Of a stretch of 39,381 nt of DNA, positions 12,453-39,381 are shown piece by piece. This DNA is from Basidioascus undulatus. Its lineage: Eukaryota. Every line of letters begins with the position of its first letter. The stretch's first letter is position 1. Position numbers and translations under genes: made by a program. Where the stretch lies: positions 1 to 39,381 of the forward strand of contig JTLS01000036.1 of NCBI GenBank assembly GCA_000826855.1, written 5' to 3'. The notes under the pieces are model-generated. The model saw nothing but the letters and a program-made list of their open reading frames with translations, was not told where the DNA came from and made no database searches.

Positions 12453-12534
12453 TCTTTGGTAGTATAGTGGCTAGTATATCCGCTTGTCATTCAGATGACC
12501 GCGGGCGACCCGGGTTCAATTCCCGGCCAGAGAG
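12453..12534 (+). tRNA. tRNA-Asp (GTC) with a 10-nt intron (12490-12499)
   Basis: Acceptor stem TCTTTGG/CCAGAGA with G discriminator; D arm TAGTATAGTGG; anticodon loop TT-GTC-A; intron TTCAGATGAC at the canonical 37/38 position; T arm CCGGG-TTCAATT-CCCGG. Confidence 0.95.
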
Positions 12535-12980: not shown

Positions 12981-14570
12981 TCACGCCCGCTGCGCCGCCC
13001 GCCATTGGTCGTACTTGAGCACAGCGTGCAGCAGGACTTGCGCGCCGGTGGCACTGAAAGTCAAACGAGCACGGGATCAGCAACTTGCACAAGATAAAAA
13101 TAACTTAGATAACAAAGATGAACAGACTTACCACTCTTCAGGAGACGTGTACTCCCGTGGGTTGTGCGACAACCCATCCTTCGACGGTACGAAAATCATC
13201 GCAGTGGGGCAGCGCTTCGAAACGGCGCAGCTACCAATGAAGACGCGACGAGCGACATCTGCATGTGGCCCGGGCAGACGTTGGTGCTGCGGGGCGAGAG
13301 AGTGAGGATGCCCTGTGGGCGTTGGAAAGACATATGTGTCAGACAACCAGGGTAAACAACCTCTGCCGGGAGGAAGCGTAGGACCAACGGTCGAAGCGAG
13401 ACCCTTGTGCTTTTTGGCGATGGCGTTGCTGGCGGTGATGATCCGCGCTGCGCAGAGGAGGGAGTCGGCTCTGGCCGAGAACGGCGTGGAGCCAGTGTGG
13501 CAGTCGCGGCCGTGGATGTCGATCGTGAACCAGCGGTACGCCTGCCCGCCGCGGACGACACCGATCTTGGCGTTCTCCTCTCCCAGAATCGGTCCTTGCT
13601 CTGGCATGAGACGCGTTAGTCTCTTGCGTCTGGAATGTGACAGGACAGCCATGAAATACTTGCCGATATGCAGCTCGAAGTGCGCCCCGAGCGGGAACCC
13701 CTGGTGGCTGCACGCCGTCTCGCCGAGGAAGCCGATGCGCTCGAGCTCCGACTTCATCGTCGCCGTAGAGTCGGCCACGTCCTGCAAAGACCATGCCTTA
13801 TCGAGGGGGGTGTGGCCCGCCCAGACGGCGGAGGAAACGATGGATTTCGGGAAGCGAGCGCCTTCTTCGCTGCAAAAATACAAACTTGTAAATGAACTTG
13901 TTCAAGGGCCGGGTAACTGAATGTGGCCAAGGATCTGTACTTCGTCCAGTTTACGACAGCCACCGGGTACTCCGTCTCGACCTTGTTTTCATGCAAGCTG
14001 CGCATGACTTCCACCCCGGCGAGCACGCCGAGGATCCCGTCGTATCGCCCGCCTGAGGTAGAAGCGTGAGCCGGCGACCCATGTCTGAACATAACGATAA
14101 GTATTACTCACCGGTCGGCTGAGTGTCCAAGTGAGAGCCCATGGCCGTCGGCGGCCCCTCGCGCTTCCCCGGCCGGACAGCGAAGATGTTGCCCATCTTG
14201 TCGACGGTCACGGCGCAGCCGAGCGTCTCCATCTCCTTCACGAACCACCTCCGGAACTTCGCGTCATTATCGTCGAGTGAGAGGCGCGCCATGCCGGTTT
14301 CTGTCGGCCCGCTGTACGGGCATAACAGCAAGGCAAACGATGAGCATGCAAAGGTAAGCGGGCGGAGGGGACCACTTACGGGCCGTAACGAAGCGCCGCC
14401 CCAAATTCGCAAGTTTCGTGAAGAGTCTTGTTGAATCGGTCGGCATTGACTCGAAGCGCGGATGAGTACGCGCGACAAAGAAGTACGGGAGCAAAGCTTG
14501 AGGCTGAGCCGCGGACCGCCCGCAACGTGCGCGGGAGTAACGGCCGTACGCGAGGGTTAACAGTGAGCAT
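12981..14570 (-). pseudogene. M20-family N-carbamoyl-amino-acid hydrolase (beta-alanine synthase/PYD3-like) with an apparent internal deletion
   Basis: Mitochondrial-presequence-like N-terminus and motifs GSHLDTQPTGGRYDG, NWTNEEGARF, AHFELHIEQGP, HTGSTP, MIFVPSKDGLSHNPREY, GAQVLL..VLKYD. After TNVCPGHMQMSL (~13249) the sequence jumps to an intron 3' end (TAG 13233-13231), so the D-x-R and SGAGHD segment is absent. Confidence 0.82.
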
Positions 14571-15204
14571 TAGGAGATATCACAGAGGTCCAAGTGAGAA
14601 GGGAGTGAGGTGAAAAGGAGGGGTGAGGTGAAAACGGAGAAGACCTTGGTGGGAAGTCTTCTCCGTCGCAGTGCGGTACGCATATGATACCATCTCGATT
14701 TCCGCAGGTTATACAATCCTGCGCTTGTATCGGAGCGGAGTATCTCTAGTATCACGTTTAAATCAGGCCATCTTCATTTGCAGCGACATGCAAAGTGTAT
14801 CGATAGAGGTCGAAAAGTGGCTTTCAACCAAGGGGCAGTAGCCTTTGCCGCGACAGCCCGCGATAGCCATGCATGCCAGCCTGCATGTCATGAGTGACTC
14901 GACCCTACAAATTGGAGTATGACTACCAGTGGCCACACAGTTTTTTATAGTGTAGTTTGTGGGGATTGTGAACATGGCACGATCCCGTCCGATCCACTTC
15001 GCCTTGTCTTCGCTGGCAGGGTGTCTTCGCGACACGCGTGCTGTCGTTTTTCTTGCCTTCCTCTCTTCGCGACTGACTCACGCAGTGCCCGTCTTCCTAC
15101 CGACTCTTTAGCTTCAGCAGCTTAATACCGTAGATCTACACCTTTTCATGCCTCTTCATATCTAAAGAACACATGCTGAATACGTGTTAGCATCTTCACA
15201 GACG

Positions 15205-16377
15205 ATGACCCTTCCCGACTGGTATTCAAACCCGGCCGCTCGCAGCTGGGCCAGCCTCCGGGCGTCTTCTGACCATCCCTCGGTCTTCCACCGCGGTGTA
15301 CTTCCAAACTACTCCCAAACCCCCCTCATCGATCTCCCCTCCGTCGCCGCTGAGCTCGGCGTCGCGCGCGTGCTGCTCAAGGACGAGTCCTCCCGCCTCG
15401 GCCTTCCGGCGTTCAAGATCCTCGGCGCGTCGTAGGCGACTTTCCTCGCTCTCTGCTCGCGGTTCTCGCTCGATCCAGATTCGGCGACTCTCGACGAACT
15501 CCGGGCGCGCTGCGCGCAGGCCAGTCCGCCTCTGACGCTTCACGCTGCGACGGACGGCAACCATGGCCGAGCAGTAGCCAGGATGGCACACCTTCTGGGT
15601 CTCCGGGCCCGGATCGTCGTTCCCGCTGCCGTCACAGCTCGGTCTAGGGCTTTCATCAGTCCGAGTGCGCGGACGTCGTCATCGTCAACGACGACTACGA
15701 CGCTGCCGTCCGCGCCGCCGCCCGCGCCGCCGCTCGCGCGCCGAGGAAGCCGGCCCGGACACTGCGCTCCTCATCCAGGACACGGCGTGGGACGGCTATG
15801 AGGACGTCCCGATGCAGATTGTGTCCGGGTACACGACGCTCTTCACCGAGATCGACGAGCAGCTCGCTGCGCTTTCCAGTTCTTCGCCCTCGCTCGTCGT
15901 CGTCCCTGTCAGCGTCGGCTCCCTCGCGCACGCTGCAGTCCTCCACTACCGCTCCTCCTCTCGCTCCTCCGACCCGCCTTCGATTCTGACAGTCGAGCCA
16001 GCCACCGCGGCATGTATTCTGCCAGCTTCTCGGCCGTCAAGGCCACGTCCATCGCCACGGGTGAGACGATCATGCTCGGCCTTAACTGCGGCACCGTGTC
16101 GTCCCTTGCCTGGCCCGACCTCCTCGCCGGCATCGACGCTGCCATCGCCATCCAGGATCGCGAGGCGGACAAGGCCGTGCACGACCTCGCCCAGCTGGGC
16201 GTCTCTTCGGGACCGTGCGGCGCGGCCACGCTCGCTGCACTGCGAGGCGTCCTTGGCGGTCCGCATGCTGCCAAACGCCGCGCGACCCTCCAACTTGGGT
16301 CCGACGCGGTGGTGGTCATCGTCAGCACTGAAGGGAGCCATGTGTATTTGGATACGGCGGTGGAGGAGGCGTCTTGA
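15205..16377 (+). pseudogene. Diaminopropionate ammonia-lyase-like PLP enzyme (fold type II), intronless, disrupted
   Basis: Motifs TPLIDLPSVAAELGV..VLLKDESSRLGLPAFKILGAS, ATDGNHGRAVARMA, LIQDTAWDGYEDVP, VGSLA, ETIMLGLNCG, GPCGAA, VSTEG. In-frame TAG at 15433-15435 (expected Trp) and frameshifts near 15657, 15740 and 16020. Confidence 0.85.
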
Positions 16378-17280: not shown

Positions 17281-19384
17281 TCAAGCAGCCTCCGCGGGCT
17301 TCTCCGCCGTCTCCTCCTTCTCATCCTCGACCTCATGGGCCTTCTCTGCCACGGCCTGCTTCACGCCCTCCACGATCTTCTGCTTCCCCTCGTCGCCCTG
17401 CCCCTCGAACTCGACCTTCGGCGCGGGCGGCGGCACCGCAGCGGCGACGGCGGGGGCCGCTTCGGCGGCGTCGCTGGGGCTCGTCCGGCCCGTGGTGACG
17501 CTCCCCTCGGTCGCGGACGTGGCCGCCGTCGTGGCTGTCGCGGAGCTGCTGTCGATCGTGCTCGCGGGCGCGTCGGGCAGGACCCACTTCTTCCACACGC
17601 CGTGCCGCAGGCGGACCTTGAGCTCGTACACCTCGACAAGGTCCGAGAGCGCGAGCGTGTCGCGCAGGGTCGGGATGTCGGTCGAGAGCGCCTTAATGCG
17701 GTTGAAGGTCGTGAAGACGGGGATGTCGACCCAGCCCTCAGAGTCCATCTGCACGCGCCCCGTTAATACAATGTCAGTTACAGTGCGTACAATCGAGACC
17801 TGGCACGAATGCAGACGCACCTGCTGCCGCAAGAAGAAGTCCCGGACGAGGTTTTGAGTGGTGAAGTAGTACTCAAGCTGAGCGTCGCAACAGACGATCA
17901 GCAGTCCCGCCTCTACCGCAGCGTGTCAACGGCCCGTACCTGACCAAGGAGGTAGAACCGCAACGGGTCGAGCGCGACGGGCGAGTTGGTTATCGGCGTG
18001 GGCATGGGCATCGGCGCGGGCTTGATGTGGCCGCCGGCCGCGGGCGGGGCGCCGAACATCTGGAAGCTCGGCTGCTGGCTCGCCTGAGGGACAAAGTACA
18101 TGGGGGGCGCCATGGCGCCCGGCGGCGGGCCGTGGAAGTGGTGTCCTCTCGGCGCACGGGGGCCGCCGCGCGGACCGCGACCACCTGGCGCACGCGGAGG
18201 GAACGTCGCGCCAGGCGCGGGGTGCGCGAGACCGGTGCCGTTCGCCTGCTGAGAAGGCTGCCGGGGTTGCGACTGCTGCTGGGGCTGCTTCTTCGGCGGC
18301 GCGGAAGGTTGGGCGGGTGCGCCGTTCGTTTGGGGTGCGCTGGCGCCGACAGGTGCGGCCGGGGCGGCGGGAGCGATGAGGGAAGCGGAGGAAGGAGTAG
18401 GAGCAGACCCAGCGGGGGCCTTCGCCTTCGCCTTGGACTTCTTGCCCTGGCCAGCGGGCGCGGTCGGCGCCGCGCCCGACTCGTCGCCGGCGGGAGCGGT
18501 GGGCGTCCGAGGACCGGACGACTTCGGTTGCCGAGAGGACGCGGAGCCGGCCGCACCGCCCTGCTGCCCCTGGCGCCCGCGCGCAGAGTCGGCCTTGCGG
18601 CGCTGCTCGCGGTCGTTCATGGACGGGGGGAGGATCATCTCCGAAGCGGGGATCGAGACCCAGTTGCCCTTCTTGCCTGCTCATCCAATCACGCACCAAG
18701 CTCATCACCATCAGCACCTGCATCATTAAGCCAGAGGGGAAGGGAAAGTGATTTAGACGCACCCTTCTTCCCGCGCCCCTTGCCCCCTGACGGCGCTGGC
18801 GCCGGCTGCCCCTCGCCCTCAACACGCGGTTTCCGCTCCTTGCGCTTCTCCTTCTTAGCCACCGCGTCGCTCGCGCTCGGCCACGCCGACTCGTCCGTCA
18901 CGGGAGGCGGCAGAGCCACCGCGGGGGTGGGCGCCGACTCCTTCTTGCCCGCCTCGTCGTCTTTCTTGTCCTCGGGCGCAGCCACAGCCGCGTCCTTCTC
19001 CTCGCCTGGCGACAACGGCGCTGAGCCCGGCGCGGGCGGGGATGACGGCGCAGAGCGTGTCGCGGCCGCAGCGGCCATCTGCTCGCGGCGCACAGCCCAG
19101 ATGTTCACCTTCGGCGGAGAAGGCGGCGGCACGGGCTTCTTCTCGGCGGGCGCGGACTCGGACTCGCCCTCCTCCTTCTCCTTCTTATCCTCGGTAGCGA
19201 CCTCAGCAGGCGCGGGTGTTTCGGACGACTTGTCCATGGAGACCTCGTGCTCGATGGCCGTCTCGGGCGCGGTGGTGCTGGATGCGGGGGAGTCGGAAGA
19301 CGGCGTCGCTGCTGCGTCTGAAGACGTGGCGGAGGCCGAGGGACCGCGGCGGGCGCGCTCGGCCCACGAAAGAGACGTGGCCAT
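17281..19384 (-). CDS. La-motif RNA-binding protein (LARP1 / Sro9-Slf1-like), 4 coding exons
   Basis: La motif LRFYLLGQ|LEYYFTTQNLVRDFFLRQQ|MDSEGWVDIPVFTTFNRIKALS...VEVYELKVRL; N-terminal low-complexity region with PPKVNIW, ESAWP and KKGNWVSI motifs. Splice phases are consistent. Confidence 0.9.
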
Positions 19385-25397: not shown

Positions 25398-27051
25398 CTA
25401 CGCCAGCCAGCTCCACCAGCTCCGCAACCGAGATGGTTCGGACAGCTCGCGCTCAGACTGCCAGAAATCCGTGCCGTTGGGGCCATAGATTTGGTTGAGC
25501 ACCGCTGCCAGGCGGATCCCGCCTACTGCGAGGGTCTTTTCGAGCAGGTGCGGGCCGTGGATGGGCTGAGAAAGACATGGTCGGGTCAGTACACATCGGT
25601 CGGTAAGTAAGCGAAAGAGAGATGGCGAGGAGTTATGAGAAGGAGAAGGGGCGCGACGTACGTCGAGGTATTCTGGAGTTGAAAGCTCTGGGATCGGCTC
25701 CATAGACGCGGGGAAGGCGATTCTGCAGGAGCATACTTGTCAGCCATAAGCTCGCCGCGAACAGACCAGCTGTTGCGGAGGCGTCTCACTGGCATGTCAG
25801 GCGCCTCGTGTCGCTTGCCCAGAAGAACGGACAAGCCGGCAAGTTGGGGTCCGGCGCGTCCGGGATGTCCGGCGCCCCGAGCACCAACTGCTTGACCCTG
25901 CCGAGCGTCGTGGAAGGCGCAGTCGGAGCGGGGAAATGGTCGCCTTCGAGAGGACAGTCTACCCAGTTGGTATGCTGCGTGGCCCACCATGACTGAATGC
26001 CTTCGGTGATGATCCAGCGGACGCTGTAGATAGTCCGTGAGTGACGGGAGCTATGGGGCGTGCGGCGGTTGACCTACTAAGGATCATAGATATTCCCGCG
26101 CAAAGCGGACTCGATGCGCTTTCTGCAAAGAGGTCGGTCGGTATTGAAGCAGATGATGAGCAGTGAATCAGACGAACGAGGGGAGGGGCGTAGTGTAGTT
26201 CGAAAGCTCGCGAATGCGCTGGTTGATGAGGAGCGAGTCCCAAACCGAGTGCAAGTTTGTGTGCCGGCCGTCAAATGTGACGAAATCTAGGAAGCAAAGA
26301 ACGTATACTATCAGCACAGCGTCGGAGAGGACAAACGGGCAGTCTGACCTTGGTTACCGCCGTAGTGCCGTCCTGTGAGGTGCAGCGGCTGGTGCAGATC
26401 ACCGAAGAAGTGGACGAGGAAGCGGAGTGGTATATCACTGCTCAACCATTCGTTAATCTTGTCGCTGCTGAAACCAGGTAGAAATCTCCGGGCGCACCCT
26501 CCACCGTCTATCAGCTGCTGCGTCACTTTCCAAATGCCAGTGATGATGTTGCTCGTCGGATAACTCCAGCCGTCTTCGCCGAAGGAACAGTGAGAAGGTG
26601 GGTAATCAGTATTCGGGTTGATGTAATGGAGTTTCGAGAGTTCGGGGCTTGGTGAGGACATGCGGGCTGTTAGCGTTGACTCGCTGATGCATAATCGAGC
26701 TGGACGAGACTAACTGTTCGCGCCGGATCGTGTCTGCCCATGCAGCTACAGACGCGAGCTGGGGATGAAAAGGTATCAGGAAAAGCAGGAGATGACTCCG
26801 TAGCGAAGATGTGCACATGTCCTTTTGCCCACGGCGGCAGTATGATCGACAATTTACGGATGGTTTCGGGATGCAGATGTGCTTGAGCAATCGTTGCGAC
26901 GATTCGATGACCTTTTTGAACGTAACGACGGCGTAATCAGCAGCGCTATGCGACATGCAAATCTCGTCGACAGACCGTCAGCTCCCCAGGCAAGTGTCGA
27001 TGGCAGCACCGCAGCGAGGACGGTGAGACCGGCGATCGAGCACAGCCGCAT
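25398..27051 (-). CDS. Secreted S1/P1-family nuclease
   Basis: Signal peptide ending TLA-WGAD|GHRIVATIAQ; AAWADTIR; LHY; FLVHFFGDLHQPLH; GGN; NLHSVWDS; LEKTLAVGGIRLAAVLNQI. Confidence 0.92.
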
Positions 27052-29524: not shown

Positions 29525-32500
29525 ATGCCGGCGCAGGAGAAGGCAAAGAAGCTCAAGTTCAAAGACAAGCTCGTCCAGAAGGGTCAGTCCTACCGGATTC
29601 CGACATCGGGACTGCATGCTGAGATCTGTGCGAGTAGGCGTTCAAACGAGCGAGCTCCTCCGGAGATTGAAGGTGAGCTTTTTCTGAGGCTTCTTCTGGA
29701 TCGTGTTGCTTATCTCCAAGGCAGGCTCTCCATGACGAGCTCGCCGAGATGGACCAGGAGACGGTGGACAAGACCAGCCTGTCCGCCGTCGCCAAGCAGC
29801 TCCTTGATAAGTCGATTCTCCTGCACAAGGACAAGGCCGTGAAGGCGCTTGCAGCCTGCGGCTTTGTCGATCTGCTTCGTCTCTACGCCCCAGAAGCGCC
29901 CTATACCGCCCACGAGCTCAAGGTGAGCCATCAATTCCGCTGGGGGAACAATTAGGCCTTTGGGTTGACGGGGGCATTGTGCCATTCAGGACATCTTCAC
30001 CTTCATCTTCCGCCAACTTCAATCGCTATGGAAGCCTCCGAAGGGCACCAAGCAGTCCGAGGTCCCCAACTACAACCAGTACGCAATGTCCTTTGGGCGC
30101 CCGCTCTCCTCGTCGTGCCGCACCAGGCTGACGCGTGCTGTCAGATACTACTATCTCGTCAACAGCATGGCCGACGTCAGCAGCGTTGTGCTCGTTTGCG
30201 ACGTTCCCTCCCCCGACGACCTCATCATTGAAATCTTCCGCAACTTCTTCGACGGCATCCGACCCGATACGTCCGGGCGGCTCGAAGGCTACATGGCCGA
30301 TATCCTCTCGCAAATCATCGACGAGTGCATCATACTTCCGCAGGACGTGCTCGAGATCCTCCTTGCACAGTTCCATGAGAACAACATCGTAGGCAGCGCA
30401 CGTATCTTCTGATGAACATGCTGTTGACAGCTCAGGGGCAAACAGAAGCTCAATCCGGCGGCACATCAGCTCGCGGTGGCGGTCTGTAATAAGACGAGCG
30501 AGCGGCTTCAACGCAACGTTTGCCAGGTACACATCTCCTGTCATAAACGCCGGCCAGACCGAAGGCGCTCACCGCTCTGACACAGTACTTCACCGACACG
30601 ATCATGCAAATATCGCACTCGTCGCCGACCGAGGAGGAGATCGAGGACGTCGAGTCGGCGCACAAGCTCATCCGCGCCATCCACCAGTCCGCTCCGGGCT
30701 TGCTCCTCAGCGTCATCCCGCAGCTCGAAGCCGAGCTCACGTTCGACGACGTCACCCTCCGCCTCATGGCGACGAAGACGCTGGGCGAGATGTTCGCCGA
30801 CAAGCCCACGGGGCAGAAGGCGGGCGGCGAGCTTGCTCGCGGATACCCGCAGACGTGGAAGGCGTTGCTAGGCCGCAAGGTGGACAAGGCCGTCCAGGTC
30901 CGCGTCGCGCTCGTCGAGGTGTCGAAGCAGATCCTTGCAAACCACCCGCAGCTGGGGAACGATTTGAACGGTATGTGAAGATCACTTTCGCAGCGGCGGT
31001 TATTGAAACTGTTCGGATTCGGGTTCTCAGAGCTGCTCAAGGTCAAGCTCATCGACCCCGACGAGAAGGTCCGCGCCGCGACCTGCCGTCTCTTCTCCGA
31101 GATCGACTACGAGACCGCCATGCACCACACGCACCTCGATCTTCTCCAAGCTCTCGCAGAGCGCTGCAAGGACCGCAAGGTAGCTCGAGGTCTGTTCGGC
31201 CTTTAATTGCTCAGATACTGATCCAAATGGACACGCAGCACTCGGTGCGCGCCGAAGCGTTCAAGGCACTCGGCCGTCTCTTCGATCTCGCATACCCGGA
31301 GATGTGCGTACTTCTCGTGCGATCGCAGATTGTTCGATTGTACTTATATGTGTTACACAGCGAGAGCCACGACGGCGCCGCGATCCAGCAATTTGGGTGG
31401 ATCCCGCAGGCGATCATTGCACCGGTAGCCATCGCGCTTGACCGGGAGACGGCCAGCATTCGGTGAGCGCGACCGCTGATTGCCATATTCAAGCAAATGC
31501 TAACTGACGCCCCGTTGCAGAGTGCTTGTCGAGGAGACCGTCGCGCAGCAGATTGTCCCTCTCCCATCGCGCGCCGACGACGAGGCCGCCTGGGTCGACC
31601 GTCTCCTCACCGTGCTGGCGGGAATGGCCGATATCGGCCCAATCCTTAACATGGCTCGGCTGAGCCCGTCGTGCGTTCAGTTCTAGATATCTTTAGAAGA
31701 GCGCGGTGCTGACCCCGTCCGGCGCCTTCTAGAGCTCATCAGCTCTTTGAACGTTTCGTCAAAGCGTCGGAGAATTACAACGTTTGCATTAAATCACCCA
31801 CCTTCAGCTTTACGCACGAGTTGACCCGCAGTTGACCGACAGGGCGGCGTTATCGACGAGAACGAGAAGGAGGTCACCGACAAGCTGAACCAGATCACTC
31901 GTGCCCTCGCTGGTACGTTACGCCGCTCTACGGCTACAGCATCCACACTCACACTCAGTCTTTGAGTCTCGGCAGCCTCATTTCCCGACCCCTCCAAGGC
32001 GCTCGGCGACCTCCAGACGTTCTATAAGGCGAACGAGGTCCGCACCTACAGAATGCTTCGGACCATCATGGATCCGCAGACCGACCTCAAAACGCTCATC
32101 AAGACCAACGTAAGCAAAAATTGTTCTAACCTCAGTTCAATCGCGCGTGCTTATGGATTGCTTTTCCTGCAGGCCGAGCTCGTTCGTCGAGTCGAGCAGA
32201 TCTCCTCATCGATTGTGGACACCTTCAAGACCTTCATCCGCCGCTGCAGCTACCCGCTCATCAACCGCTCCTCTGTCTCGGCGCTGGTCAAGCGTCTGCA
32301 GCGCACGGACGGCACCGACGATGCTGAGAGCATGGCTGCGCGCGCGAAGACGATTCTGGAGGCGATCGCCAAGTGGTCGCCTCACATGTTCCGCTCGCAC
32401 GTGCATGAGCTCGCGAAAGCCATCGCCGACGACAAAAACGAGCGCCTCGTCGAGGTCTGCCTGCGCGCGCTGGCGTCGGTCGCGAGGGTCGATGCGTCTG

Positions 32501-34889
32501 CTGCGCCTACCGATCGGTTTGTCTGCGTTATCCGTGCCCTCCTTTTCCAGCTGCTCACAAGGAAGGCGCCTCTAGGCGAGCTGTGGAACGGGCCAAGCAC
32601 TATGTCCTCGAGGGCACCGCGCTGCAAGCCAAGTTCGCGACTCGTTTGCTGGCGCATACGCCTGATGGCGATGACGTCCTGCGGGAGATCATCGAGGTGC
32701 GCATTTGCCCTTGACCTGTCGGGAGCGCGTATCGACGGCCGCTGAGTGGTTGGCGTCGCCAGACGATCGCTGAGGGCATCACCGACGCCGAAGGGGACGT
32801 TCTTGCGGCGCGGACGAGCGTCCTCGCCGAGACCGCGAAATCGGCGCGCGAGGTGTTCGAGTCGCAAGCCGAAGTCATCGTGCCCTTCGTCCAAAAGGAC
32901 CTTTTGCACCGTACAGACGAGGTTCGCATCTCGTTCACTCTCAACCCCGTATTCTCGCCATTACTTAAACAACCACGCGCTGCGCAGAAGACCGCGGGCG
33001 AGGAGGAGTGGCTCGAAGATGGCGAGATCGACTCGCTTACGAAAGCGAAGGTTTCCGGGCTCCAAGTCCTGACCGCCCGCGCGCTCGCGCACAAGGACGA
33101 GGAGACCGCGCCCGACACCGCAAAGCCCGTCTCTCAGCTCCTCCTTCGGCTGTTGGAACACGAAGGCGCGTTCGAGGCGGATTCAGGCTGGAGGTACGTC
33201 CATACCTGTTTTTAATACGGCAGCTCGCAGCGTTCACCCTTACGCGATCGTTGCAGCAACGGCGTCCGTACCCGTCTTCGGCTGAAAGCGGGAACCTGCC
33301 TTCTCAAACTCGCGGCGCACCAACCATACGACCGCGAGGTGATTGGCCGCGAGATCAATAAGATCGCACTCGTCGTCCAGGTGAGTTTATTCGGACTTCC
33401 GGGTTTGCCAACCTGCGATCGTTGACATTCATGTGCTGTCGGGTAGGACGAGCTGCCTCAAGTTCGACACGCTTTCGTCACCAAACTCACGCGCTACCTT
33501 TCCATCGGTCGGCTTGGCTACCGCTGGCAAATACTACCATTCGTCGCTGCGAATGACCCCGACAAAGAGATTAAGAATCTTGTGAGGCTTGTGTTTACAA
33601 CCCTGGCTTTTTCATCCTTTCTGATGCCCTCGCGTTCGCATGACGCTCAGGCCCGCTCATACGTCGTCAGCTTGTCGCGGAGAATGCCGCAGCGTTCGTT
33701 GTTTCTTACACCAAGTCAGACTCCCGACTAACTTGGTTTCGCACTCCAGAACAACGACTGGCGGCGTTCGAGCTGGGCTTCCTCCGCTTGCTTCATCTCA
33801 TCGCGCACCATCCCGACTTCGACGCAACTGAACCTGAGGAGGTTCGGATGTCCGCTGCGTAGGCTCCGCGTTCAACCTTCCGCGTCCCTTCAGGTTCGTT
33901 GCTGATACTCCGCACAGCTACATCTACTTCTACCTCGAATGCATCGCCACGCCCGAGAACATCACCCTGCTCTTCCATCTCGCTGGCAAGCTCAAGACCG
34001 TCCGCGACGCCGACTCTCCCGCGATGTCTGAGGTTCGAGATTACGTTGCTGATGGCTGCGCCAGATCCCCATCTTACCATACCTTTTTTCGACAGAACCT
34101 GTACGCCGTCAGCGACCTCGCCCAGCATATCACCAAGGCGGTGGCGAACGCGCGCAAATGGCCGCTCGGATCGTACGCCGGAAGCGTTAAGATGCCATCC
34201 GACATCTTTCGGCAGTTGCCGAGCGCCGAGGCGCAACGCGAGGTGATTCATTGTCGCCGATTTGTCTCTGCAACGAAGCTGACACGCCGTTCATGTGTTC
34301 AGATCCAGAAGCGCAGCTTCCTCAAGAACGACGTTCTCGAAGCGCTGAAGACCTCCAGCAAGCCCAAGCCTGCTCGTTCTTCCCCGAAGGTGCGCTAGGC
34401 GTCAGCCTCAATTACAGCCAGAGGTTGAACTAACTCATCGTCCCTGCTGCAGTGCAAGGCGAAGGCGGATGCTGACGGGGAAAAGCCGACGAAGACGAGG
34501 AAACGACCTGCAGCCAAGTCGCTGTCCAAGTAAGTCTCGCGATCTCAAAAGTCCATGACTCAGGCTCACTTTCGGTTTACATAAGACCACGCCGCAAGAA
34601 GCGCGCCGCCAAGGCCGAATCGTCCGACGAGGACGTGTCCGAGGCGTCTGGCACGGAGGACGAGGACATGGACGCGGAATCGGCTGCGGCGTCGTCGGAG
34701 TCGGAGGAGGCCGAGCTTGACGAGGATGGCGAAGAGAAGCTCGGTCGAGGCGGGAGGCGGAAGGCGGCACGTCGGGCGGCTAAGGCCGTGACGAAGAAGA
34801 AGCGACCGCAACCGAGGCCGGCCGTGAAGTCGAACGGCGCCAAGGCGAAGTCTCCTCCAGCAGATTCCGACGAGATGGATGAGGACTGA
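29525..34889 (+). CDS. PDS5: Sister chromatid cohesion protein Pds5 (HEAT repeats), more than 20 introns
   Basis: KLKFKDKLV, ELLRRLKALHDELAEMDQE, LHKDKAVKALAACGFVDLLRLYAPEAPYT..ELKDIF, VIPQLEAEL, RLMATKTLGEMF, KLIDPDEKVRAA, LLHLIAHHPDF, basic/acidic C-terminal tail. The junctions checked are in frame. Confidence 0.95.
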
Positions 34890-37412: not shown

Positions 37413-39381
37413 TCATCTGCACTCGTAGCTGCCCGCCTCGTCCGTGCTCCCCTTGCCCTTATACCGCGCCTTCAGCGGGTAAGGGCACCACAGCCTTGTC
37501 CGCTCCGAGCCGTCGACGGGGCCGATCGCCTCGATGCGGTCGGGCGTCTGCCCGTCCTCGACCCACGCGCGGAGAACGTCGAGCCCGAAGAGCAGCGACG
37601 GCGCGTGGTCGAGCCCGTGCGCGGGGCCGCAATGCCCCGTGCACGCGCCGAGGAAGAGGCGGAAGAACTCGGACTGCTCCGAGGCGGACAGGCCGAGGTG
37701 GGATTGGACCGCTTCGTAGTACTCGATTGGCCAGTACGCGGAGAAGTACGAGTCCGCCCAGCCTGCGTGGGGGAGAGAGGGGAGGGGAAGTTCAGCTTGG
37801 AAGAGAAGGAGAGAGAAAGGTAGAATGGCAATGCACCTTGCGTGACGAGCAGCTTCCCGCCCCTCGCCTTGAACGCGGATAGGTCCGGGTCGATCGAGTC
37901 GAGGGGCTCGCCCGCGAGCCTGGCGACGTGCCGGATCTGGCTCGGGGTGAACGTGAACCAGTCCATGCTGAAGTCCAAGTTCTTGTACACGAGGTTCTGG
38001 ACGAACGGCGTCGCGAGCGTGTCGGCGAGCGTGGTCTGCCACAGCCAGCCGGCCTCGCTGCCCTTCGGCAGGCCTGGGTACAGCTGCTGGCCATCCACCT
38101 GCGGGCCCGCGTAAAGCTTCTCGACAGTCGCAATCTGCGTCGGGGAGAGGCACTTGGCCGAGTCGGGCGACTGGTTCGGCGCGCAGAGGAGCGTCTTCAG
38201 CGAGTGCGTGCACGTCGGCGGGTCCTCGAGGAACTTGTCCGCGACCCCGTCCGAGAGCGTGTCGCACGTGGAGAGCACGGAGGAGGTGATCATGTCCAGG
38301 TGCGCTTGCGTGAGCGACGGGTCGGACTGCAGCGTCCGGGCGTTGTACAGCGTCGCGAGGAAGATGTGCGACCAGTAGGCGCCGGGCGAGCCGGCGATGA
38401 TGCCTGGAGGAAGAGAAAGGGGGAGAAACGTAAGGAGAGGAGGCAGCGCGACAAGCATGAAGGAAGACCACCGTCAAAGTCTTCGGGGTATAGTTGTGCA
38501 AGGGCAAGACCTTGGGCGCCGCCGGTCGAGCAGCCTGAGAGAACAAGGCCAGGGGGTGAGTATCCGCTCTAAGCATCCAGCAGCACTTCCCGCCCAGCCC
38601 AACACCCTCCCAACGATCCCTGTGCCCGTCCTCCCTCTGTCCGGGCACTCACCCTGGAAGTAGCTCTTCTTGACGTCCTTGCCGTAGTACTGGCGGATGA
38701 ACTCCTTGCTGACGATCGAGAAGACGTGCACCGAGTGCTTGATCCAGTACAGCGTCTGGCGCTCGTTGCGCAGGAAGGGCACCTTGATGCCCGGGCCAGG
38801 GGCGAAGTTCTTGGGGGACGTATGGCCCGAGTCGGACGAGCCGACCGCGTACCCGCGGAAGACGCCGTAGAACTGGAGGTTGTGCTGGATGAGGCCTGCG
38901 AGACCAGAGTTGCCTATTGCGGGAAAGGGGGTTGAGAGGATAGGAGGAGGAAGGAGGAGGTGGAGTGACGATAGAAAGGAAAGATTAAGACGAACCAGTT
39001 GCGTAGTAATCCCCATTCCACTCATCCGGCAGCCACAGCTCGAACCCGACCTCCACGTCGCGCTCGGCGCGAATGACGCCTTCAACACGGCAGAACGGCT
39101 TGTCGTTGTAGTGCTTGCCGTCGGTGAACGTCTTCTTGGCGTGGTAGGTCGTCGCCGTCACGCGGGTCTCGGGGTACCGCGCGCGGCGGAGGAAGTCGCG
39201 GCAGGCGGCCTTGCCTGGGGGCTGCAGCGGCGCGGTGTCCTCCTGTTCGGGCGGCGGATCGGAGGAAAGGGAGGAGGGGGACTTGTTGTTGTTCAGGGAG
39301 GAGGCGGGGCGGCGACGCGAGGAGGAGAAGGAGGAGTTGGAGTAGGAGGAAGGAGGAGGTGGAGTGACGATAGAAAGGAAA
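37413..39381 (-). CDS. Tannase / feruloyl esterase family hydrolase, 5' end truncated by the window edge
   Basis: FCRVEG, FELWLPDEWNG, GNSGLAG, GYAVGSSDSGH, SYFQ|GCSTGG, YPEDFD|GIIAGSP, DLSAFKARGGKLL, GWAD, FFRLF..TGHCG, RTRLWCPYP. The CS-D-HC catalytic arrangement is intact. Confidence 0.93.
38945..39381. repeat. Exact 38-bp direct repeat (38945-38982 and 39344-39381)
   Basis: aggaggaaggaggaggtggagtgacgatagaaaggaaa occurs inside a tannase intron and again as the last 38 nt of the window. Confidence 0.9.

Follow-up and report, generated by a model that had tools for sequence, protein, structure and literature searches.

A decayed gene pair for a PYD3-type ureidohydrolase and a diaminopropionate ammonia-lyase in Basidioascus undulatus, a candidate relic of a two-gene catabolic module of basidiomycete fungi

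Background

Can two genes standing head to head in a fungal genome, one for an M20-family hydrolase of N-carbamoyl amino acids and the other for a diaminopropionate ammonia-lyase (DAL), make up a two-step catabolic pathway? The question is raised by contig JTLS01000036.1 of Basidioascus undulatus (assembly GCA_000826855.1), of which positions 1 to 39,381 of the forward strand, the whole stretch of 39,381 nucleotides (nt) that was analysed, are called the window here. The window is fungal nuclear DNA, with spliceosomal introns and best protein matches to basidiomycetes (Ustilago, Leucosporidium, Phenoliferia, Ceratobasidium, Rhizoctonia). A first, sequence-only reading had described the two genes as a head-to-head pair 634 bp apart beside a tRNA gene, a layout whose coordinates proved exact to the base (Table 1), and had proposed that the hydrolase acts on 3-ureidoalanine (albizziine) to give 2,3-diaminopropionate (DAP), which the lyase would convert to pyruvate and ammonia. 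Both family identities were borne out, but the reading frames of both genes are broken, a point that the main text of that reading had left unstated. Both genes are in fact pseudogenes that are still transcribed; thus no pathway is active in this genome, and the working two-step pathway proposed for it has to be given up. Comparison with other genomes, among them the fungal metagenome contig L081 with an intact copy of the pair, inclines us to see in the locus what decay has left of a conserved module of two catabolic genes in basidiomycete fungi, one for a PYD3/AmaB-type ureidohydrolase and one for a DAL.

Results

The hydrolase gene has lost part of its active site

A 257-aa open reading frame (ORF) fragment of the minus-strand gene matches the beta-alanine synthase of Lachancea kluyveri (1r3n; SkPYD3) in two stretches (2.2e-38); in a Pfam search with the separate ORF pieces of the gene, no family was found at E <= 0.01. 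The intact proteins most similar to it, P0032 and P0034, reach 332.7 and 329.2 bits with TIGR01879 (cut-off 204), and P0034 aligns to 1r3n over nearly the full length (7.4e-112). Along with P0031 and P0037, these two proteins match TIGR01879 and allantoate-amidohydrolase-like models, and the YgeY models (NF009555/TIGR03526) are absent among the matches of all four at E <= 1e-5.

Exons 1-5 of the gene (Table 1) read cleanly to '...KGLAST', the intron at 14311-14378 having been placed by homology and its GT..AG ends only. The following exon, 13312-13132, which is supported by RNA and starts with GILTL, reads GILTLSPRSTNVCPGHMQMSL, then VASSLVAAPFRSAAPLR and a premature stop. The predicted spliced product has ~343 aa, and the conserved C-terminus (SCAVSKRCPTAMIFVPSKDGLSHNPREYTSPEE, then CATGAQVLLHAVLKYD...) sits in another frame. 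Comparison with the intact gene of L081 locates a deletion scar in this exon, with anchors on either side that equate L081 4535-4470 with window 13315-13250 and L081 4170-4069 with window 13232-13131. The net loss relative to L081 is ~280 nt (~282); it takes in ~84 codons, from the junction of '..SL' with 'DIRH' up to 'GAGHD', and the 5' portion of the intron that follows, whose 3' end is kept and is now exonic and out of frame. Indels were placed by tblastn/tblastx anchors; global nucleotide alignments, at ~60-67% identity, misplaced the gaps.

According to PMC12169670, the di-zinc site of SkPYD3 consists of His114, Asp125, Glu160, His226 and His421, Glu159 is the catalytic residue, and Asn309 and Arg322 anchor the substrate; His397 and His262 are named as well. 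The hydrolase of the window retains the motifs GSHLD, YDG, NEEGARF and HFELHIEQG and the Asn motif STN, which correspond to His114, Asp125, Glu159, Glu160, His226, His262 and Asn309. The Arg322 motif D[IMF]RH and the His397 motif GAGHDS, both present in L081 and P0034, fell within the deletion, and the motif 'SHN' of the zinc ligand His421 survives only in the out-of-frame C-terminal part, which the spliced mRNA cannot translate. The di-zinc site, the substrate-anchoring/His397 set and the uninterrupted spliced frame are thus all three incomplete.

Apart from these lesions, the fourth intron (13601-13663, minus strand) has GC..AG ends, is 63 nt long, in frame and without a stop, and is spliced in the data set X3 described below; the corresponding intron of L081 begins with GT. 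An Arg/Ser/Leu-rich N-terminal extension of ~38 aa (MLTVNPRVRPLLPRTLRAVRGS...), encoded by 14570-14457 (minus strand) and lacking in the L081 protein, could be a mitochondrial presequence or a non-coding leader.

Table 1. Coordinates of the gene pair, its lesions and the neighbouring features in the window
Feature	Position	Strand	Basis or detail
PYD3/AmaB-type M20 N-carbamoyl-(beta-)amino-acid hydrolase pseudogene	12981..14570	-	stop 12981-12983, ATG 14570-14568
Hydrolase exons	14570-14379, 14310-14111, 14051-13941, 13869-13664, 13600-13389, 13312-13132, 13053-12981	-	tblastn with P0032 and P0034, plus X3 contigs
Deletion scar, 17 nt	13233..13249	-	replaces 299 nt of the intact L081 gene; tblastx/blastn anchors
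Divergent intergenic region, 634 bp	14571..15204		between the two ATGs
DAL-family pyridoxal 5'-phosphate (PLP) enzyme pseudogene	15205..16377	+	ATG 15205, stop 16375-16377
In-frame TAG	15433..15435	+	motif FKILGAS*A (asterisk, stop); Trp or Phe in relatives
tRNA-Asp(GTC), 82 nt	12453..12534	+	ARAGORN; Rfam RF00005, 47.8 bits (gathering score 29)
La-domain protein	17284-17925	-	Pfam
S1/P1 nuclease	26314-26709	-	Pfam
PDS5 cohesin-associated protein, multi-exon	29969-34395	+	Pfam
Tannase/feruloyl esterase	37416-39157	-	Pfam

The lyase gene carries a stop codon and three frameshifts

The Pfam family PALP is matched by 4/5 ORF pieces of the plus-strand gene, and a fragment of it aligns with the DAL structures of Salmonella and E. 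coli at 1.5e-13 (5ygr) and 1.3e-07. Against the NF006058 DAL model (cut-off 276) the related proteins P0001, P0014 and P0015 reach 313.6, 277.2 and 276.3 bits, and P0004, at 265.7 bits, falls below. All four lie below the cut-offs of TIGR03528 (far below) and TIGR01747, and the window gene, being frameshifted, is not scorable as a whole. Homology to P0001, P0004, P0010 and P0014 (tblastn) passes from frame 1 (15223-15657) to frame 3 (15651-15710), frame 2 (15740-16021) and frame 1 again (16024-16359), with -1 frameshifts near 15655-15660, 15723-15739 and 16019-16023 and no spare sequence for introns; the coding region is intron-free. At the column of the in-frame TAG, the residue is Trp in 13/13 relatives of alignment A1 (the invariant W76) and Phe in L081. 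The motifs AFKILG and ATDGNHG in frame 1 and IQDTAW in frame 2 are still legible, in columns that are invariant or nearly so in A1. By E. coli DAL numbering, Asp189 is a residue that we take to be functional. Lys77 binds PLP and Asp120 is catalytic in the E. coli enzyme (PMC4000059).

The lesions are real and are carried by transcripts

Three public runs contain the stretch, namely X1 (2014), X2 (2025, from another study) and X3 (from the same sample as X2). In both X1 and X2 a single contig spans 12900-16500 (3601 nt) and agrees with the window at every letter, with no gap; since the assembly may derive from one of them, no more than one can count as independent. X3 is not on record as RNA, its kind being only guessed as DNA, and its contigs skip 13054-13131, 13312/3-13387/8, 13601-13663, 13870-13940 and 14052-14110 in the hydrolase gene on the minus strand (CT..AC as read on the forward strand, one CT..GC), and 15130-15201 (GT..AG), with 15129 joined to 15202. 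Five of these six joints are GT..AG and one is GC..AG, each in the sense of its own gene, and since such intron-shaped joints have no counterpart in X1 or X2, we conclude that X3 behaves as complementary DNA (cDNA). The DAL gene has a 5' untranslated region (UTR) exon, covering at least 15068-15129, and a 72-nt GT..AG 5'-UTR intron at 15130-15201, inside the intergenic region.

The lesions are found on these contigs too. The TAG is present in one X3 contig, 15323-15495, which shows 0 differences from the window; another, 15615-16370, is identical to the window at the frameshift sites, and the hydrolase contig is continuous through 13132-13311. Bearing as they do both the lesions and the joints, the contigs imply that both pseudogenes are transcribed and that five introns are spliced out of the hydrolase transcript. 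The lack of X3 cover over 14231-14956 carries no weight, and contig depths are unfit to rank expression. A second copy at >=90% likeness was returned from neither X1 nor X2, and other records matched only 18-21 nt. It could be argued from the transcription of both loci and the correct splicing of the hydrolase that the genes are functional after all, the lesions being sequencing or assembly errors, or being bypassed through readthrough, frameshifting or editing. We consider this extremely improbable: X1 and X2, which are DNA data of separate studies and separate years, show no difference from the window over the 3601 nt, the cDNA-like contigs have the TAG and all the frameshift sites unedited, and any bypass would need to overcome four independent lesions in the DAL gene plus, in the hydrolase, the lost codons with their active-site residues.

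The pair is intact on another fungal contig

A scan of metagenomes with the DAL alignment gave 80 loci, of which 79 look bacterial and one, L081, is fungal. This contig of 8.1 kb, with a GC content of 0.60, has the hydrolase gene on its minus strand, modelled as an intact protein of 432 aa with seven introns and identical at 370/428 positions to P0033 of Phenoliferia psychrophenolica. Head to head with it, at a distance of 306 nt, the plus strand bears the DAL as a single intact 391-aa ORF, residues 36-378 of which align to solved DALs at 2.8e-56 (5ygr) and 1.1e-49. The window's fungus and the source of L081 are distantly related, the proteins being 68% (hydrolase) and 57% (DAL) identical, and tblastx finds likeness, however weak, only between L081 3958-7009 and window 12999-16243, so that the pair is all that the two contigs have in common. 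Tail to tail with the intact hydrolase, L081 1600-3700 (plus strand) holds an intron-bearing aldehyde dehydrogenase gene, the only Pfam hit on the contig besides the PALP domain of the DAL itself; a Pfam search of the 129 window ORFs of at least 110 aa found no counterpart of it. The sequence-only reading had declared in advance that it would fall if the two genes adjoined each other in no other genome. Instead their adjacency is kept intact on L081 and recurs between the two families in bacteria.

Actinobacteria join the same families in co-directional operons

The bacterial genome set comprised the 80 closest loci, most of them with a flank of 10 kb per side; 77 are actinobacterial by title, and the others are one Chloroflexia and two 'uncultured bacterium'. 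An AmaB-type M20 gene, its product 36-44% identical to P0032, was found in 11/80 loci, always on the strand of the DAL and within 1.7 kb of it; six loci have the two genes immediately next to each other. A second M20, of the ArgE/DapE type (TIGR01910), follows the DAL in 15/80 loci, and one or the other M20 is present in 21/80. Among the bacterial-looking metagenome loci, many of which are short (GC 0.60-0.77, DAL 46-54% identical), the AmaB-type M20 occurs in 6/79 and the second M20 in 5/79. Pfam and NCBIfam searches of 6 of the 11 AmaB-positive loci revealed a recurring layout (L009, L014, L050, L066, L069, L072 and others), in which a divergent LysR gene is followed by the TIGR01879 AmaB-M20, the NF006058 DAL and often the ArgE/DapE-type M20.

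As in the fungal pair, a TIGR01879-type hydrolase adjoins an NF006058-type DAL in these operons, and their DALs are the closest non-fungal relatives of the fungal ones. Unlike the fungal pair, the genes are co-directional, genes for a second M20, for LysR and for a permease or LysE often accompany them, and the hydrolases belong to a separate clade. Two deprotecting hydrolases in company with a DAL suggest the catabolism of a doubly N-substituted diaminopropionate, e.g. 2,3-diureidopropionate, and it is with this compact operon, apparently uncharacterised so far, that the comparison brings something new to attention on the bacterial side. An amino-acid permease gene is present in L014 and a LysE exporter gene in L066, and the second M20 was also seen at L001, L005, L007, L008, L024, L034, L035, L059, L060, L065, L076 and L077.

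The two genes have different histories

A quick IQ-TREE search was run on 72 hydrolases, 62 of them fungal and 10 actinobacterial and DAL-linked, with SkPYD3 left out. All 62 fungal sequences form one clade (SH-aLRT 100), far from the 10 actinobacterial ones, and its inner groups follow taxonomy roughly. The L081 hydrolase groups with Phenoliferia, and that of the window falls in an unresolved basidiomycete part, being 67-72% identical to proteins of Cantharellales, Microbotryomycetes and Ustilaginomycetes alike. The clade contains proteins named beta-alanine synthase, its nearest solved structure is SkPYD3, and on this tree it is apparently fungus-wide and vertically inherited. Since the clade follows taxonomy, the window hydrolase is best seen as an ordinary fungal PYD3-like orthologue, neither a bacterial import nor a special, divergent paralogue.

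The DAL tree tells a different story. In 74 rows sampled by best match, analysed by a quick search and midpoint-rooted, 13 fungal or fungal-like rows (window, L081 and 11 others from Rhizoctonia, Ceratobasidium, Marasmius, Dendrothele and two Logan proteins) form one clade with SH-aLRT 95 among sequences of Actinomycetota, and actinobacterial sequences are the nearest to it, at ~47-56% identity. Given this position, the intron-free coding region and the patchy occurrence in fungi, a single acquisition from an actinobacterium-like donor fits, the direction of the transfer being the one that the tree would suggest. With the fungal and the DAL-linked bacterial hydrolases in distant clades, the pairings arose independently, and such independence argues for a functional reason to keep both genes together.

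Discussion

Two 2025 papers make an M20 ureidohydrolase that feeds a DAL a matter of established bacterial biochemistry. E. coli YgeY and YgeX together convert albizziin to pyruvate in vitro (PMC12507026), and in the second paper the 2-ureido group of 3-amino-2-ureidopropanoate is the target of YgeY, with YgeX acting next (bioRxiv 10.1101/2025.04.24.650524); the two papers disagree on the ureido isomer that YgeY attacks. In E. coli and Clostridium, where the pair serves the reductive uric-acid/2,8-dioxopurine pathway, the M20 enzyme removes a ureido group to give DAP and the neighbouring DAL makes pyruvate and ammonia, and in this the fungal pair would be alike. The chain from ureido-alanine over DAP to pyruvate, as it had been laid out from the letters of the window, can accordingly be regarded as demonstrated for the E. 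coli enzymes, with the reservation that YgeY represents a different M20 subfamily. Unlike YgeY-YgeX, the fungal pair is eukaryotic, intron-bearing and divergent rather than an operon, and in the window it is dead. None of the families XdhD, YgfK/UacX, SsnA, HyuA and YgeW/UacY, which make up the context of the bacterial pair, was found by Pfam in window ORFs of at least 110 aa or on L081. Judged by its sequences, the fungal module is thus predicted to work like YgeY-YgeX and yet to stand outside that system, its M20 belonging to another subfamily and no upstream urate-pathway families being nearby.

Albizziine is the alpha-amino derivative of N-carbamoyl-beta-alanine, the substrate of PYD3. Considering this likeness, and the fact that the intact fungal hydrolases keep the motifs with the Asn309 and Arg322 equivalents, it is plausible by analogy that a PYD3-type enzyme makes DAP from albizziine. 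The L. kluyveri enzyme (1r3n, 2v8g, 2v8h) is the best solved relative, and intact fungal relatives hold its zinc-ligand, catalytic Glu, Asn309, Arg322, His262 and His397 motifs; it differs in being known for N-carbamoyl-beta-alanine in pyrimidine catabolism, with no known link to a DAL, and from the window copy in the equivalents of Arg322 and His397, which that copy lacks, and of His421, which it cannot translate. Similarly, the DALs of E. coli and Salmonella (YgeX/DpaL; 4d9g, 5ygr) share with the fungal proteins, the window copy included, the AFK motif of the PLP lysine and the ATDGNHG motif of Asp120, whereas the fungal clade is nearest to actinobacterial enzymes, stays far below the TIGR03528 cut-off, and is represented in the window by a pseudogene.

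The interpretation that we favour, by no wide measure, is that of the decayed module. In such a module, the intact hydrolase would decarbamoylate a beta-ureido amino acid such as 3-ureidoalanine to DAP, CO2 and NH3, and the lyase would turn DAP into pyruvate and 2 NH3. The lyase gene would have entered fungi from the actinobacterium-like donor and come to adjoin the resident hydrolase; transcribed divergently from one intergenic region, the module would then have become dispensable in the lineage of the window, where both genes decayed. The coupling of the two enzymes in fungi, and their co-regulation, are what we infer from the arrangement. A bolder and distinctly more doubtful version would have it that the module is an ancient mini-cluster of basidiomycetes, in which a captured actinobacterial DAL and a resident PYD3-type hydrolase provide a eukaryotic route from 3-ureidoalanine to pyruvate and 3 NH3, convergent with YgeY-YgeX from another M20 subfamily, kept by selection across lineages as distant as the window's fungus and a Phenoliferia-like yeast, and lost here. 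The source of the substrate could then be albizziine of plants or intermediates of bacterial urate fermentation.

Several observations weigh against a module of this kind. Conservation of the pair in fungi amounts to one further contig (n = 1); the locus tags of fungal DAL genes (FRC11_008361, FRC08_001370, FS749_011756, OPQ81_000195, RSOLAG1IB_10356, V5O48_007459) and of fungal hydrolase genes (FRC07_006995, RQP46_004912 and others) come from different assemblies and are uninformative on adjacency in Rhizoctonia, Ceratobasidium, Marasmius and Dendrothele. Among the fungal DALs are KAG8733156.1, KAG8705914.1 and KAG9094816.1 of Ceratobasidium, KAJ1305163.1, CEL62298.1 and KAF8667852.1 of Rhizoctonia, V5O48_007459 of Marasmius crinis-equi and proteins of Dendrothele bispora, and RQP46_004912 is the tag of hydrolase KAL8284163.1 of Phenoliferia psychrophenolica. 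On the bacterial side, 69/80 DAL loci have no AmaB-type neighbour in the flank fetched, the distance between the fungal and the DAL-linked bacterial hydrolases in itself speaks against a common system, and the one system with demonstrated chemistry employs YgeY, a member of the ArgE/DapE-like branch (NF009555/TIGR03526) and not of the TIGR01879 type (AmaB/AllC/PYD3) to which the fungal hydrolase belongs. Albizziine as the fungal substrate is a guess by analogy, the main job of the hydrolase may be pyrimidine catabolism, independent of any DAL, and decay of the region may reach past the pair. Nor did the intergenic regions bear out the single bidirectional promoter that had been envisaged: 14571-15204 shares with L081 5656-5961 8, 2 and 0 8-, 9- and 10-mers against shuffle means of 6.0, 1.3 and 0.3, and with 2 HGATAR sites in the window region and 0 in that of L081 there is no GATA enrichment and no common promoter motif between them.

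Such observations leave room for the two genes being neutral neighbours, i.e. a PYD3 of reductive pyrimidine catabolism beside an independent, horizontally acquired detoxifier of DAP (or a serine dehydratase), with the adjacency an inherited synteny or an accident of the insertion site and the double decay a coincidence. A hydrolase clade that is fungus-wide and roughly follows taxonomy is what this explanation predicts, as is a best solved relative in SkPYD3, and the lack of a promoter motif in common agrees with it. The same holds for the thousands of fungal matches to the hydrolase as opposed to 30 for the DAL, an uneven comparison in that the DAL query was a broken translation. What makes us think it rather unlikely is that the head-to-head pair has been kept in two contigs that are otherwise unlike and whose proteins differ by 32-43%, that the same families have been joined independently in actinobacteria, on the same strand and within the short distance given above in 11/11 cases although the flanks reach up to 10 kb per side, and that both genes died together in the window. 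Alternatively, the module may be real and serve another substrate chain. The starting compound could be, for example, 3-amino-2-ureidopropionate or 2,3-diureidopropionate that escapes from the reductive breakdown of urate in bacteria. It could also be N-carbamoyl-serine, in which case the lyase would serve as a serine dehydratase, or a ring-opened product from the breakdown of 5-aminouracil or hydantoin. The disagreement between the 2025 papers over the isomer used by YgeY would make both isomers biologically plausible, and the second, ArgE/DapE-type M20 of the bacterial loci suggests two N-deprotection steps. However, no hydantoinase, SsnA-like amidohydrolase or carbamoyltransferase family occurs in window ORFs of at least 110 aa or on L081, and the Asn309 and Arg322 equivalents kept in the intact fungal members fit beta-ureido acids, albizziine included, for which reasons a different chain appears improbable to us.

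Should the intact pair function in the way proposed here, fungi would use or detoxify ureido-alanine and diaminopropionate by a route that is undescribed in eukaryotes, put together from a native enzyme of the pyrimidine pathway and a bacterial import, and mirroring a bacterial purine pathway that was worked out only in 2025. The widespread PYD3-like hydrolases, too, might then have a second physiological substrate. The claim that the pathway is uncharacterised can be upheld for fungi, the chemistry itself having been known in bacteria since 2025: a full-text literature search, judged by title, found no paper on a fungal DAL, and a search for albizziine and diaminopropionate likewise gave no fungal case. 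For annotation, both genes of the window are to be called pseudogenes, not enzymes.

Other features of the window

The tRNA-Asp(GTC) gene lies ~450 nt downstream of the hydrolase stop and is a neighbour of the pair, outside the module; its anticodon loop has an insertion of ~10-12 nt that resembles a nuclear tRNA intron (ARAGORN, Rfam). The Pfam scan of the 129 ORFs found no families other than F-box, Voldacs, La, S1/P1 nuclease, PDS5 and tannase. A change of frame in the tannase gene near 37760-37830 fits an intron of ~68 nt. The segment 18000-19500 is GC-rich (0.65-0.72), and each of its strands contains long open frames that overlap one another and encode much Pro, Ala, Arg and Gly; it is probably a low-complexity part of the La-domain gene.

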